64,000 bases of DNA, from UHGV virus genome UHGV-0236300; one strand, written 5' to 3'. A program made the position numbers and the translations under genes. Of this stretch, positions 1 to 61,862 are shown one piece after another. Position 1 is the first letter of the stretch; every line of letters begins with the position of its first letter. A model generated the notes under the pieces. That model did no database searches and was not told where the DNA came from. It saw only the letters and a program-made list of their open reading frames with translations. The DNA is from a virus.

Positions 1-60
1 AAAGGGATCTTTATGTTCGACATGAAAGATTCTATCGTTGTTGATGTCTGGAGGTATTAA
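1..60 (+). CDS. 3' end of upstream gene (partial, runs off window start)
   Basis: Frame open from nt 1 to TAA at 58-60; stop overlaps ATG of next gene (TAATG). Confidence 0.3.
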   Translation, partial: KGIFMFDMKDSIVVDVWRY

Positions 61-3000
61 TGCCAATTGCAATGATTGATAACATCGTTGCTTCTGCAAG
101 ATCTTCGAGCTATGACTGGAACGCATCCAAGGCAGCTCTGGCTGACAGCCTGAACACTGTTACCACCAGAACCCTGGATAAGATTTTCGAAGGAAACAAA
201 TCTTACAGGAGTCAGCAAGATAGACAAAAACTTCTCAGATCTTCTGCTGCACCTTGCTCTGTAGTGTATGGGAAGACACGCACATCTGGGTTGCTTGCGT
301 TTTTGGAGCAGGACAGGGACAGAACCCTTCATTGTGCTATTGTTCTTGCCAATCATCCCTTGGAAGGTATAGAAGATATACTTATCGACGGTAATCCTAT
401 TTCCTCGTATGGGGATTTGGTATCGTGGGAGTTACATAACGACAGGAAAACCTCTGATCCTTTCATGGGAACACACTGCCCTTCGTGGTCACCAGACATG
501 ATAGGTAGAGGTATCAGTTGGCTACGTGCCAGCTTTAAGTTTGACCCTAACAAGTTTCCTTTTGGGTTGCCAAACGTTACACTTGTCAAGGTTGGTAAAA
601 AATGTTATGATCCTCGTATCAGTAAAGAGGTGTATACCAATAACGCTGCCTTGGTGATTCTGGACTATCTAAGAACGTACCTTAAATGTCCTGACGAAAC
701 CATCAACTGGGAGTCCTTCAAGGAAGCTGCCAACATATGCGACGAGGCTGTAAAAAACGCGGACGGAACCAGTGAGCGCCGTTACACCATTAATGGCGAG
801 TTCGACATGGACGAAGCACCAGCAAGTATTATGGCAGAGATGCTGAAGGCTTGTGGTGCAGACCTTAGCTATGTGGCTGGCAAATATGGTCTACTGGTAG
901 GTGCATACTATGGCCCGGCAACAATGACACTGAGTGAGGACTGTGTTTGCGGTGAGGTTAAGATCTATCCTGAAGCCTCCTTCGACAAAAGATCAAACAC
1001 AATAACCGGAAGATTCACCAGTCCAACCAAAGGGTATTCTGAAACAGACTTCCCGTCGGTGTTCGTACCTGAATGGGTAGAGAAGGACGGAGAAAGAAAG
1101 ATAATTGATATAGATTATCGTTTTGTTACCAGTCCTTATCAGGCTCAGCGTGTTTCCGCAATATTCTTAAGACGTGCCAGAGCTGGCAGGATTATTGAAG
1201 TAACCTGCAATATGCGGGGTTTTAAATTTAAGCCTGGGCGTTACGTTACGATGGACCTTCCAAGTATTGGTATAGTGGGCCAAGAAATGAGGGTTCTTGA
1301 ATGGGAGTTCACCAAAAAGGGCGGTGTCAAGGTAAAACTCCGTCAAGATGCTAAAGAGTGGAATGATGCCACAGGGCAACTTCCGGATTCTGGAGATGTG
1401 GATATTCCGATATCCCCGTCCGGCGTAGCTCAACCGCAAAACTTCAGATACTCTGTTCTTCAAGCTGGGGAAGTAACTCATGGTGTTTTGGCTTGGGACA
1501 ACGTTGGAACTTATGCTCAAAATATTGTGCAGGTAAGAAAGAACGGAGAGATTATTTGGACAGCACAAACAGTCGAGCAGTTTGTCCGCGTAGAAGGATT
1601 GACCAAAGGGTCATACACAGCAACCGTGGTTGCAACATCTTATAAAGGTGGTGTATCTCCAGAAGCCTACTGCGAGTTCAACATTCAAGCACCTGAAGCT
1701 CCTGTTTCTGTAGAAGTTAAGCAGGGATACTTTGCTATCACCTTGATTCCGCACAGCAGGGACTTAGCAAGTGTAAGCACCCAGTATGATTTTTGGACAT
1801 CTGGTATGACAAGGTTGCCGGACACAAGTGATGCAACCGTTACTTCAAAAGCCACCCGTATGGGTGTTGGTTCAACTTGGACATCTGAAGGTCTGCAGAA
1901 CGATAAGATTTATTATTGGTATATTCGAACCACAAACGCTTTTGGTAGTTCTCAGTTTGTAGAATGCGCTGCACGCTGCTACACCTCTATTGAAGATTTG
2001 ATGCCTCAGATAGATGCTGAATTTAAAAAGACAGAAACTTATAAAGAGTTGATGAGCACTTTAGATTCCTCTATCGAGGAGGTTGAAAATCGTGTCACAG
2101 AGCTTAACAAGTACATGGACGGAAGGGTAGATGAGGCATTCCAACAACTTGGAGATAGGATAGGTGCGGTAGTTACAGAGACAACTCAGAAGTTTGAGGA
2201 TGTCAATGGAAATATCACAGCTCTGGATAGGAAACTTGTTGCTGCACAGAACAAGTTCACCAACGATCTGAACACTGAAAGTGGAAGACTGGCATCCCTG
2301 ATCGAGACAACCAATAAAGCAACCACTGATCTTCTGAACAAAAAGACAGAGGCTTTAGACGAGAAATTGGTTGCAGCCAAAGGGGAGTTGGTAGAACAAA
2401 TAGATGGTGTGGAGAGCGGATACCTTGCCGGAGATAAAACTCTGGATGGCAAGATCAACACCCAGAGAACGGAACTTGATGCAAGCATCCTGAGCACCAA
2501 CAAAGCGACAGTGGATCTTTTGAACAAGACCTCTGAGACCCTGGATCAAAAGATTAGTCAGACAAACGCGACGGTATCTAAAAACTATACCACCCTTGAT
2601 GGTAAGATAACTACCGCAAAAACTGATCTCAATACCTTGATTGCCAATACCAACAAGGCCACCACCGATTTGTTGAATCAGAAAACCTCTGCACTGTCAG
2701 AGCAGATAACCTCTGCACGTGGGGAGATTTCTACCAACAAACAGGCGATTAAGGATTTAGATGGTAAACTGACCTCCACAAAGACAGCTCTGGATGCTAC
2801 AATTTCCGATACCAACAAAGCAACCGTGGATCTTATTAACGGCACAGCGTCAGCTATTCGTCAAGAACTTGCTGTTGCTAAGCAGGAGATCATTGATGAT
2901 GTTGGGGATGTGTCAGAGCTCAGAGCTGCAGTGGCTACAACATCTAAGGCTGTGACCGACTTAGAGGGCAAAGTAAATGCTCAATGGGGCACAAAAATAC

Positions 3001-55534: not shown

Positions 55535-55562
55535 TTGACAAGCTAACCCAAATCAGTATACT
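55535..55562 (+). promoter_or_regulatory. sigma70-like promoter followed by conserved ACGTAAACGGGAAAACTTCCC element
   Basis: TTGACA-16-TATACT; downstream 22-bp element 55567-55588 duplicated at 57426-57447. Confidence 0.6.
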
Positions 55563-55613
55563 TAAGCACGTAAACGGGAAAACTTCCCAGAACACACAAA
55601 AGGAGAAAACACC

Positions 55614-57404: not shown

Positions 57405-57421
57405 ATCTCGATAAGTATACT
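57394..57421 (+). promoter_or_regulatory. sigma70-like promoter followed by conserved ACGTAAACGGGAAAACTTCCC element
   Basis: TTGACA-16-TATACT overlapping end of upstream gene; element at 57426-57447. Confidence 0.6.
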
Positions 57422-57478
57422 TAAACACGTAAACGGGAAAACTTCCCGCCACTAACAAAGAAAATAGGAGAAAATATC

Positions 57479-58457: not shown

Positions 58458-58522
58458 TACAACAGGTTGCATGGTCAGGGGCGATAAAGCCCCTTGATCA
58501 CATAAAAATTATGCTATCCCTT

Positions 58523-58551
58523 GTTGACAGGGATCGGCAGTTTTGCTATAT
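58523..58551 (+). promoter_or_regulatory. sigma70-like promoter
   Basis: TTGACA-17-TATATT. Confidence 0.55.
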
Positions 58552-58601
58552 TCTTTTTTGAAGGGAAGTTGTAAGAAAATTAACTAAGAGGTAAAAACAC
58601 C

Positions 58602-59021
58602 ATGAACATTAAATCTGATAATCCGGCATATAGCTTTGATAACGCTTTTTGTCACGGTCCGGCGGCGAAAGGATTCGAAATCGATGGTAAACTAATTATT
58701 GTCAATGTTGACGGGGAAGAGGTTGCAGTATATCCGGTGGCAGACGTTAAAAGCCGTCTACAATGCCGCATAGATGTTACCGCCTATCAGCTTGATCCGG
58801 TCCGGGTAGTTGCCCTGGTCCTGGAAGAAGAAATTAAAGCAATGCACCACAGCAACAAGTTTATTGGTGACGCTCAAGATAATATGCAGGTATGCCGCTA
58901 TAAAGTTAATGAAGTGCTTAAAGAGTACGGCTATAAGGATTTAATGATCAAGCGCGATGAAAAATTCCGCTACCGTAACGACCTGGCAAATCGGATTTTT
59001 GAAATATACGAATCATTATAA
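58602..59021 (+). CDS. hypothetical protein
   Basis: RBS AAGAGGTAAAAA; terminator follows. Confidence 0.55.
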   Translation: MNIKSDNPAYSFDNAFCHGPAAKGFEIDGKLIIVNVDGEEVAVYPVADVKSRLQCRIDVTAYQLDPVRVVALVLEEEIKAMHHSNKFIGDAQDNMQVCRYKVNEVLKEYGYKDLMIKRDEKFRYRNDLANRIFEIYESL

Positions 59022-59040
59022 TTTCTTAACTGAATTATCA

Positions 59041-59067
59041 AGGGGCTTAAAGGCCCCTTTCTTTTTG
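59041..59067 (+). terminator. rho-independent terminator
   Basis: AGGGGC-TTAAAG-GCCCCT hairpin plus TTCTTTTTG. Confidence 0.75.
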
Positions 59068-59929
59068 TCTGCTCTTCTCCTACCATAAACGGCCCTACCT
59101 GGCAAGTGGAATAATTGACTAGCCATCAATCCCACATACTGTACAAATATACATGGAAAATAACTATTGCATAATCTTTCATTGTGTGGTAGCAGGGCCA
59201 TTTTTACCCGTTTTCTCTCCCAAAAGTGCACGTAATGCCGCTATTGCACAAATTTTAACCTGATGCACATCTCCAATATCTTGTCAACAACTAAAAATCT
59301 TTATAAGTCATACACTTACACAGCATCGAAAGCGTGTTCTACGCGAAAAATCGAGTATAACTATAGCCGCCAGATCTCAGAATTCACGTACGCACGCCAT
59401 TCTATAGTCTGCAAAGTATTTATTCCAACCACAGAATAACGGAATAGTCAATACCTGCATAAAATAATTATTCGTGTAAACTGCATAACATAAATCAGCT
59501 CAGGTGTCAACATTTTTCGTAAACAGTTCGAAATTGTCACGATAAGTTATTATACACAGAGAAATCTTTAGTCGTCTAATGTTTACTGTACATTACTATA
59601 CTGACTGGAATCATTAGATGACTAAGAGAAAGATAAGAAATAATTAATAATGTAATTGTTTTACCTGTAACAATAAGGCAACTATGCAAACGAATGGCAT
59701 GGCGCGACGGAGTCGCGACATAATATAAAAGCAGTAACAATCACCCCCGTGATAGTTTTTCTGCAATCTATTATTCAGATCATAGTTGCCTTGTATTTAG
59801 TTAATCATGACATAACAAGCAAGGCAACTATAGATCTTCTAATAGTTGCCCTGCTTTTATATTATGTCATAGATTGTTATCTTGTTAATTGTTTTCATGC
59901 AAACGAATGTCATGGCTTATCATCTCTGT

Positions 59930-60100
59930 GTAAACAATTTGGGCGTAAACTATTCAGATGAAAACTATTCAGGCGTAAACAGTCTATGCGTAAACAGTGA
60001 GATATGGAATAGTAACAGCCGTTATTGTGTCATATTGTGTCATTGTGTCAAAGGTAAAAGTGTCAAAAGTGACAATTTTGTCACATTGTGTCAGACAAGT
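59930..60100. repeat. iteron array: GCGTAAAC direct repeats, then TGTCA/TGACA repeat cluster
   Basis: GCGTAAAC at 59943, 59973, 59988 (and 60310); AAACTATTCAG x2; ATTGTGTCA x3 and TGTCAAAAGTGACAATTTTGTCACATTGTGTCA at 60024-60096. Confidence 0.65.
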
Positions 60101-60622
60101 TTTTCTCCTCTTTGTCAAGTGCCGCATGAAAAATTTACAAACTGGTATGGTAGCATTTTTGCGGCCCTGTTTACATTCAGGAATGTATGTATAATCCTTG
60201 CTGTGTGGGCGTTTAGACGTCTGGACGGTCAGAAGTCAGCAGGTCAATATCTAATCTATTGGTTGCTAACTATATCCCACACAAATAGTAAGAAATATAA
60301 TTGTTATGTGCGTAAACAGTAACTCATGTTATCAATCCCTGTATGTATCGCCAGTGGTGCGCATAATGGGTATTATGTTAAATTGCCCGTAATGATAACC
60401 ATTCTCACAATGATAGGTATTCTCATTCATCCCCACAAGATAGATTGCAAATGTTGTGCCACTGTGTGAACGGCCTCACCTATTAATTTGCCTCACTGCC
60501 TCGATATTTGAGAATTATTATAAAAAATGAGAAGTATTCCCATTCCGTCCGCCTGGCAGCACTCCTGTAGGACAAGCACAACATCGGGGTATAACTGGAC
60601 CTGTTCAGATATTTCTGGCTGA

Positions 60623-61163
60623 CTCTTCAGGCCTGTGTGGGAAAAGCCAACCTCTCCGGCGGCGGGGAGGGGGGTCAATTAAAAAATTTACGTGGTGTAT
60701 GAAGCGCTCTTCAGGCAAGGTGTGTATTATGGGATGAAACCCTCTTCAGGTGATGATATTTGTGGGGGGATATTTGCTGGAAAGCCAGATATGACGGGGC
60801 TCCCGGCGGGGATGGGGTAGTACAGACAGGGAAAATGTGGGGATGTGGTGGGAGTAAATTGATCAAGTAGGTAGGATATGGAATATGTTACAAGTATGTT
60901 AAATATAGAGGTAGGATATTTGTGAGATTTGTGTGTAAAATCAAAGACTTAGGTGGTGTTGTGGTATTTTCTATAAATAATTCAAGTTTAATAGGTGATA
61001 TTTGTCTCCATCCACTTTGTGTGGTAAACAGCTCCTAATTGAATTGGTTTACAAGTGTATATAAAGTATACAAATTAAAGATATAAGAAACCCCCCTCCC
61101 CCTTCGGCTACCATTCACCTTTTCCTCTGACTGGTACTTAAACACTTATTCAGACTCTTCAGG
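60623..61163. repeat. dispersed CTCTTCAGG motif copies in G/T-rich non-coding DNA
   Basis: CTCTTCAGG at 60623, 60708, 60742 and 61155 (fifth at 61815), each followed by GT-rich tract. Confidence 0.55.
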
Positions 61164-61526
61164 TTATCACCCCTATACTATATGGCAGTGACTGGTGTCC
61201 TCCGGCCCCTCTTTCGCCACCCGTCCGCTTCGCCATGCTAATGCCATAGCCAAAGGTTCGGTTGTTCACCCTGTTCACTCAGGTGTATCTCCATACCCCT
61301 TCAAACCGAAGAGAACAGAAAACCCGAATTACTCGGTAAAAGAAAAGAGAAGAACTTAATTTTATCAAGATAGGCAAGAATGTCAAGGGATGACTGCTCA
61401 CTAAACAAGCAAACAGTCATGTGTGGTAGGTAAGTAACTGGGTTGGTAGGAAATTTAGTTGGAAGATGTTATAGGTGCCTCCAGAACCTTAGCTGGGCAG
61501 CTAAACCTGCAAAGCAGACTTGTGTG

Positions 61527-61742
61527 TCAGTCCAAAGGTTCATCTACTACTTCACTGAAATCAATGTTCAGGGTCTCTTCCCAACCATCAATCTCAGCAC
61601 CAGAGTAGAGATCTTTAGGGTCTACATCAAGGGCTTCCGCAACAGCATCTATATTTAACACTTCTGGCAGGTAAGATTCATCGAATTCAAGGTAAATCAG
61701 GCCACGAGTGTTGTCAGTCCCACCAAATATTTCTATTTTCAT
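61527..61742 (-). CDS. hypothetical small acidic protein
   Basis: ATG 5 nt after AGAGGAG (track start 61808 lacks RBS). Confidence 0.5.
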   Translation of the reverse strand: MKIEIFGGTDNTRGLIYLEFDESYLPEVLNIDAVAEALDVDPKDLYSGAEIDGWEETLNIDFSEVVDEPLD

Positions 61743-61862
61743 GAAATCTCCTCTGGAAATGAGAGTGTGAACAGGGTTTATACGTTCCAATACGCTGGAA
61801 TTATGCACGTTTGCCTCTTCAGGCCATGCTTTAGCATGATAAACTTATGTGGGCTCGGTGCT

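Follow-up and report, generated by a model that had tools for sequence, protein, structure and literature searches.

Arrays of short repeats beside a probable fixed genome end in the gene-free gap of a Vequintavirus genome

Introduction

At the concatemer junction of phages T7 and T3, arrays of short repeats reportedly flank a short direct terminal repeat, an arrangement said to have been described by Dunn and Studier in 1983 and by Chung and Hinkle in 1990. Short motifs that bind the small terminase subunit also lie beside the cleavage site in P1 pac (hexamer repeats around the cut), in lambda cosB and cosQ and in SPP1 pacL and pacR. Iteron origins of replication typically consist of well-conserved direct repeats of 17-22 bp that are helically phased and stable in copy number. 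Here we analyze a stretch of 64,000 nucleotides of the virus genome UHGV-0236300 (the window), in which a gene-free gap of about 2.4 kb (59070-61526) contains two arrays of short repeats. A preliminary description made from the sequence had presented the left part of this gap (59070-60350) as a candidate origin or regulatory hub. Comparison with relatives indicates instead that the gap very probably contains the physical ends of the genome, one of which directly adjoins an array.

The locus resembles a T7/T3 junction in its fixed ends, in the length of its terminal repeat (a few hundred bp, with a single copy at each concatemer junction), and in the gene-free DNA with short repeat arrays that lies directly outside this repeat. 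It differs in belonging to a 137-kb myovirus rather than a 40-kb podovirus, in the length of the repeat (459 bp against 160-230 bp), in having a clear tandem array on one side only, in flanking genes that converge where those of T7 all run in the same direction, and in the absence of a phage RNA polymerase promoter or pause site. As in P1, lambda and SPP1, short motifs in roughly helical phase adjoin a sequence-specific cut. However, the motif sequences are unrelated to those of the three phages and binding is here only a candidate property; P1 and SPP1 are headful packagers, and lambda has cohesive ends rather than a duplicated terminal repeat.

Among phages related to rV5, terminal repeats of 459 bp (Gotham) and 458 bp (EdH4 and HdK5) have been published. 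The Mydovirus KPP-1, a member of the same subfamily in a different genus and classed as T7-type by PhageTerm, has a 514-bp repeat with twofold read coverage, which lies in the corresponding gene-free gap between convergent genes (PMC9862379). Both the terminal repeat and where it lies are known from GenBank and two papers. In the literature searched, we found no description of the arrays at the cut, of their variation in copy number or of the set of end-specific motifs, which add modest new detail to what is known.

Results

A direct terminal repeat with fixed boundaries

Matches to the interval 59070-61500, at 85-97% identity, came from 122 phage records. Nearly all of these are from Vequintavirus (rV5-like E. 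coli myoviruses), and the window phage is itself a Vequintavirus. Between 98 and 102 of these records cover at least 80% of the interval, and in most it is unannotated. The gap separates convergent transcription units, with plus-strand genes on its left ending at 59021 and minus-strand genes on its right ending at about 61527.

Within this gap, GenBank records of relatives that come from different laboratories and countries share their termini: at least eight of them begin or end exactly at window position 60094 or 60553. In ECP2309, EdH4, Gotham and HdK5 the homologue of 60094-60553 stands at both ends of the record, that of ECP2309 starting at 60553 on the reverse strand and ending at 60094. 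The Pr121LW record begins at 60094, and those of bov11CS3, bov25_3 and EcoIv14a_Aya begin at one boundary of the same segment. In Gotham, the two copies are annotated as repeat_region (1..459 and 136567..137025) and are identical to each other. The segment 60094-60553 is thereby identified as a direct terminal repeat (DTR), 460 bp long in the window and 459 bp in relatives, with 93-98% identity; Gotham, EdH4 and HdK5 have the same DTR at 94-96% identity with identical boundaries. The left cut, at 60093/60094, falls between ATTGTGTCA and GACAAGTTTTTCTCC, that is, between TGTCA and GACAAG, and the right cut, at 60553/60554, falls between CCGTCCGCC and TGGCAGCAC, so that TGGCAG follows the cut. 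The window itself reads through the junction and contains a single copy of the DTR, and for this reason its DTR is established by homology (94-98% identity to the four relatives that have it at both ends).

The same sequence at both ends (by homology) and sequence-specific boundaries that are identical across independent isolates are the features of a T7-type terminus. Relatives and published reports together give us high confidence that the DNA in the virion is a linear molecule whose ends are fixed and carry the 459/460-bp direct terminal repeat of 60094-60553. Since the record ends of relatives and the published repeats fall within the gap, the gap is in all likelihood the genome-end region, the junction between successive genomes in replicating concatemers. 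The terminus evidence available from relatives thus points to fixed ends at 60094/60553, and not to the origin or hub of the preliminary description. Several further points speak against that reading: the TGTCA array described below adjoins the cut, the interval has no genes to regulate, and most features of an origin are missing.

A scan of IMG/VR with the start of the repeat returned one contig only. Phage I29 (ON286975.1) carries a tandem duplication of about 545 bp that matches window 60336-60880 and spans the right DTR boundary; this duplication may be real or may be an assembly artefact of the terminal repeat.

Repeats at the genome ends extend beyond the genus. Other rV5-related repeats include the 514 bp of KPP-1 and the 328 bp of Mt1B1_P17 and Schickermooser, and in Mt1B1_P17, a Phapecoctavirus, the repeat is found at both record ends, after the same last gene as in the window. 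The corresponding flank of KPP-1 shares GATATTT, CTCTTCAGG and the G-rich GGGNAGGG, in DNA that cannot be aligned. The genes that lie beyond the Mt1B1_P17 repeat are oriented away from it. Comparison beyond the genus rests on motifs and layout, because blastn gave no more than a 37-nt match for KPP-1 and, for Mt1B1_P17, only a cassette containing a 139-aa gene.

Two tandem arrays beside the left cut

Two arrays lie immediately to the left of the DTR. The first (59925-60000, plus strand) is a tandem array of degenerate 15-16-bp units with the core GTRAAY(A/T)(G/A)T, four of them clear in the window, and corresponds to what the preliminary description called GCGTAAAC iterons. Direct repeats of GCGTAAAC are indeed found at 59943, 59973, 59988 and 60310, with AAACTATTCAG duplicated as described, and Tandem Repeats Finder places 3.4 copies of a unit with a 15-bp period at 59930-59980. 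All four copies of CGTAAACAGT in the window (59518, 59974, 59989 and 60311) and five of the ten copies of CGTAAAC (within 59518-60317; 4.7 +/- 2.1 expected in the window from shuffles) belong to this neighborhood. The second array (60024-60093, plus strand) consists of TGTCA-type units mostly 8-11 bp apart, about one helical turn, and its final unit runs precisely up to the left boundary of the DTR. The palindromic TGTCA/TGACA cluster was correctly recognized in the preliminary description: it holds seven copies within 73 nt, where the density in the window predicts 0.25, and no denser cluster of this kind occurs in the window. The copies of ATTGTGTCA reported within it were also found, although they number four (60024, 60034, 60042 and 60085) rather than three.

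Both arrays vary extensively among relatives. The GTRAAC array has 1-10 units spaced by 15-16 bp or multiples thereof (about ten in rV5, four in the window, one clear unit in phiWec189 and C9), and the TGTCA array has 1-7 units across 16 genomes. The repeats that had been called iterons are thus present in relatives, but not at the stable copy number of an iteron array. Regardless of unit number, the TGTCA array terminates at the cut, between TGTCA and GACAAG, in 16/16 genomes, so that short repeated motifs adjoin the left cleavage site in each of them, as they do in pac and cos sites.

In an alignment of ten genomes, most of the gap is 0.9-1.0 identical and is conserved at least as well as the flanking genes, with identities of 0.8-1.0 in the non-coding left flank (59070-59924) and of 0.9-1.0 in the non-coding right flank (60554-61526). 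The drop in this alignment, at 59925-60075, coincides exactly with the two arrays. Since FV3, isim, Pr121LW and ECP2309 share their GTRAAC array and differ in their TGTCA array, the segment nearest the cut changes fastest. A second indel hot spot is found at 60569, 16 nt beyond the right end of the DTR, where JEP1, phita32 and C9 carry a 33-66 bp insertion that duplicates GCACTCCTGTA. At about 59873, most relatives have an extra 45-60 bp that includes a GC-rich hairpin (AAACACCCGAAGGGGTGACCAAAGGTCACC), which the Murica record marks as a terminator; this insert is absent from the window phage, from pangalan and from Gotham.

Motifs concentrated at the genome ends

Single copies of the GTRAAC motif are dispersed well beyond the array. 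Ten copies of GTRAACA on either strand occur within 59400-61300, where 0.58 would be expected at the density found elsewhere in the window; they lie on both flanks and inside the DTR, and single copies are conserved in nearly all relatives. Dispersed GTRAAC sites on the left flank are at 59476 and 59519 (plus) and 59580 (minus); GTAAACA sites inside the DTR are at 60168 (minus) and 60312 (plus); and GTRAACA sites on the right flank are at 61024 (plus) and 61263 and 61272 (minus). Two other motifs are clustered and conserved: CTCTTCAGG, with four copies on the right flank (60623, 60707, 60742 and 61155), and GATATTTG, with one copy inside the DTR (60503) and four on the right flank (60755, 60769, 60915 and 60997). 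On the left flank, four AAGGCAACTAT/ATAGTTGCC sites alternate in orientation between 59674 and 59853. This flank also has two 20-bp direct repeats of ATGCAAACGAATGNCATGGC, also written ATGCAAACGAATG(G/T)CATGGC, at 59684-59703 and 59897-59916. The segment between the 20-bp repeats is dispensable, as FV3 is without those 213 bp, including the four AAGGCAACTAT/ATAGTTGCC sites.

The distribution in the whole Gotham genome (137 kb), the ends of which are verified, shows the same concentration. GTRAACA occurs seven times in its first and five times in its last 1.5 kb, against 0.48 expected, and no other 1-kb window has more than two copies. The terminal 1.5 kb likewise hold 4 of 9 copies of CTCTTCAGG, 5 of 7 of GATATTTG and 3 of 3 of AAGGCAACTAT. 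These counts indicate that GTRAACA, CTCTTCAGG, GATATTTG and AAGGCAACTAT are specific to genome ends. The preliminary description had suggested that one DNA-binding protein recognizes all of the array and promoter sites; the excess and conservation of dispersed GTRAACA speak for such a protein, while the connection to promoters proves weak, as discussed below.

Base composition in the gap is also uneven. An AT-rich stretch (27-31% GC) extends over 59450-59650; on the right flank (60650-61300) strand composition is extreme, the plus strand being G-rich and almost free of C at 60700-61000 (GC skew up to +0.74) and C-rich at 61050-61300. At 60664 and 61090 lie the arms of a perfect 12-nt inverted repeat, GGGGAGGGGGGT/ACCCCCCTCCCC, and both arms hold a KOPS-like GGGNAGGG, the two facing one another. 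The window has 12 copies of GGGNAGGG where 5.3 are expected, and Chi sites are not enriched.

Coding capacity, transcription signals and neighboring genes

The rightward gene block ends with a 139-aa open reading frame (ORF; 58602-59021) and is closed by an intrinsic terminator at 59040-59067 on the plus strand (a hairpin at 59040-59059 plus a T-run in our terminator scan, annotated as a terminator in Murica), in agreement with the terminator placed there by the preliminary description. Nucleotide homology to Phapecoctavirus ends at this terminator. The cassette 58513-59067, which comprises the 139-aa gene, its upstream region and the terminator, has 79.5% DNA and 89% protein identity to phages of Phapecoctavirus, a genus of another subfamily. 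In Mt1B1_P17, this gene is likewise the last before a gene-free stretch of about 0.9 kb and the terminal repeat. The gene has no Pfam domain and is absent from Gotham.

A comparison of all 26 ORFs of at least 30 aa in the gap across nine relatives revealed no conserved ORF in 59070-60350. The three ORFs at 59749-59961, 59882-60322 and 59997-60194, which had been dismissed as not credible, are intact in the window only and are broken by frameshifts or stops in 9/9 aligned relatives. Translated ORFs conserved in relatives, which would have spoken against the non-coding view, were thus not found among these nine, and the rV5 genome paper shows the gap as a grey box marked "non-coding" (PMC3606486). 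The ORFs at 61159-61420 are intact, which is uninformative because this block is about 100% identical anyway. Inside the terminal repeat, a hydrophobic ORF of 47 aa (60326-60469, plus) is intact in 8/10 genomes, has no Shine-Dalgarno sequence and is called "membrane protein" in one record; comparison with the KPP-1 ORF in the equivalent place gave no convincing protein similarity. The label "FtsK" that some records give to a small neighboring protein is unsupported by Pfam. An Rfam scan of 58800-61800 gave no match at E<=1, and a structured RNA at 60560-61360 was rejected, the folds of both strands being less stable than shuffles (z = +2.4).

The strongest sigma-70-like site in the gap lies on the minus strand at 61324-61386 (TTGACA-16-TAAAAT, with TG upstream of the -10 box and 11/12 matches). 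It is followed within about 20 nt by a terminator-like hairpin and belongs to a block (61075-61425) with 94-100% identity across all relatives. Judging from its sequence, the site could give rise to a very short RNA or be an activating promoter.

The preliminary description had also located the array core just downstream of two early promoters. ACGTAAAC is present there, at 55568 and 57427, as part of a 33-nt element, GTATACTTAARCACGTAAACGGGAAAACTTCCC, that is otherwise unrelated to the arrays. This element has exactly two copies in the window (55556-55588 and 57415-57447), each with a TTGACA box on its upstream side and a gene start on its downstream side. By its appearance, the element combines a -10 box shared by early promoters with a start region and a leader hairpin (GGGAA-AAC-TTCCC), which would place CGTAAAC in the transcribed leader.

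Across this region, about 19 records named "UNVERIFIED Campylobacter phage" are vequintaviruses of the E. coli type with 85-95% identity, which suggests mislabelled or contaminating phages.

Discussion

We consider a genome-end region in which the arrays act in cis as signals for making the ends to be the best overall explanation of the gap, and a reasonably probable one. For the narrower proposal that the repeat clusters serve packaging, which draws on analogy, we judge the chances to be evenly balanced. Their position adjacent to the cut site makes cutting or packaging a more likely function than replication start or gene control, and in the general scheme the terminase binding site adjoins the cut site (PMC3896407). 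By this proposal, the helically phased TGTCA array would position terminase, through its small subunit or an accessory protein, at the left cut, and a nuclease would nick at the last TGTCA unit, between TGTCA and GACAAG. The GTRAAC array of 15-16-bp units, together with the conserved single GTRAACA sites on the flanks and in the DTR, would assemble a larger nucleoprotein complex over the junction, which would single it out as the place where packaging begins or stops and where the repeat is duplicated. Such a model is patterned on the T7/T3 concatemer junction, P1 pac or lambda cosQ-cosN-cosB.

Several observations weigh against fixed ends made with the help of these arrays. The rV5 paper calls its genome circularly permuted (PMC3606486), and PhageTerm has classed the genomes of the bov phages and of BpE1AUH as permuted or headful; in their later version, the bov records nonetheless begin at a DTR boundary. 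Nowhere in the gap is conservation lower than in the array segment (0.23-0.64 identity), and a fixed number of units cannot be required, as some relatives keep one clear GTRAAY unit or one or two TGTCA units. No comparable array is found at the right cut (60553/60554). Beyond the genus, KPP-1 is without a tandem array at the cut, and Mt1B1_P17 is also without a TGTCA/GTRAAC tandem array there.

The variability of the arrays would find a simple account if they were by-products of nicking, fill-in and strand displacement at the DTR boundary, or of slippage or recombination, which make and erode tandem duplications of little function. The segments just outside the DTR are both indel hot spots (59925-60093 and 60569), copy number varies among close relatives that otherwise share the gap, the TGTCA array varies even where the GTRAAC array is identical, units are more degenerate farther from the cut, and FV3 is viable despite its deletion between the 20-bp repeats. 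Such an origin leaves unexplained the conserved single GTRAACA sites, which reach to about 1 kb on both flanks in both orientations, as well as the retention of some units in every genome and the invariant terminal unit; we therefore regard it as unlikely, if the least unlikely of the alternatives. Those dispersed sites are the starting point of a somewhat more doubtful idea, in which some sequence-specific protein binds the ten or more conserved GTRAACA sites, enriched more than 15-fold around the DTR and clustered nowhere else, and builds over the genome ends a telomere-like complex, through which replication begun at the ends, or the formation of concatemers, would be tied to cutting by terminase, the fast-evolving arrays tuning its strength. 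A little less probable again is an origin at or near the genome end, where a phage initiator would recognize the GTRAAC repeats as its iterons, the AT-rich stretch about 300 bp from the array would unwind, and synthesis would start near the termini. As in lambda ori, plasmid iterons and P4 ori/crr, the locus has direct repeats of a short motif, further copies of it in the vicinity and a stretch rich in AT, and the array together with its conserved dispersed copies is unique to this locus in the genome. The array units also resemble the iteron of the P4 alpha protein, TGTTCACC / GGTGAACA, a likeness that we count for an origin; an exact TGTTCACC occurs at 61266-61273. N4, which also has short terminal repeats, starts DNA synthesis at its ends (PMC3896407). 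Against an origin, the array units are degenerate, 15-16 bp rather than 17-22 bp long and present in 1-10 copies among close relatives, unlike the helically phased and numerically conserved units of iteron origins. DnaA boxes are not enriched (four in the window against 8.4 expected, two of these in the gap), no initiator-like gene is adjacent (the products of eight neighboring ORFs gave only sub-threshold Pfam hits), and the replication genes of Gotham are more than 20 kb distant. Gene blocks of about 37 kb on both sides are transcribed towards the gap, so that outgoing forks would be expected to meet transcription head-on, and in rV5 skew analysis gave no origin, skew changing only where the direction of transcription changes (PMC3606486).

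That same convergence bears on a regulatory role, in which the arrays would be a transcriptional hub, their repeats serving as operators of a regulator shared with the early promoters at 55.5 and 57.4 kb. CGTAAAC is common to the arrays and the two promoter-proximal elements, and the gap holds a few sigma-70-like sites, the best on the minus strand at 61386-61359. Because both flanking blocks are transcribed towards the gap, however, a hub would have no downstream genes to regulate. Promoter-like sites in the gap are not in excess (12 against 9.5 +/- 2.8 in shuffles), and neither an Rfam match nor an unusually stable RNA fold was found there. The link between arrays and promoters is weak, since the promoter element is a separate 33-nt unit with only 7 nt in common with the array units, and since the units of relatives are mostly without CGTAAAC and read TGTAAAC, TGTGAAC or CGTGAAC. 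We consider a regulatory hub very improbable, more so than any of the other explanations.

A genome-end region with cis-acting signals for making ends would account for the 2.4-kb gene-free box that was left unexplained in the rV5 paper, where the genome was described as circularly permuted. A specialist would not be surprised by this reading, since short-repeat arrays at a fixed-end concatemer junction are a known type of element. Many database records of the genus are cut at arbitrary points, and the exact end sequences and candidate motifs given here could be used to re-orient vequintavirus genomes and to test the specificity of their terminase. Both could also help in the design of vectors competent for packaging, or of therapeutic phages engineered from this widely used group.

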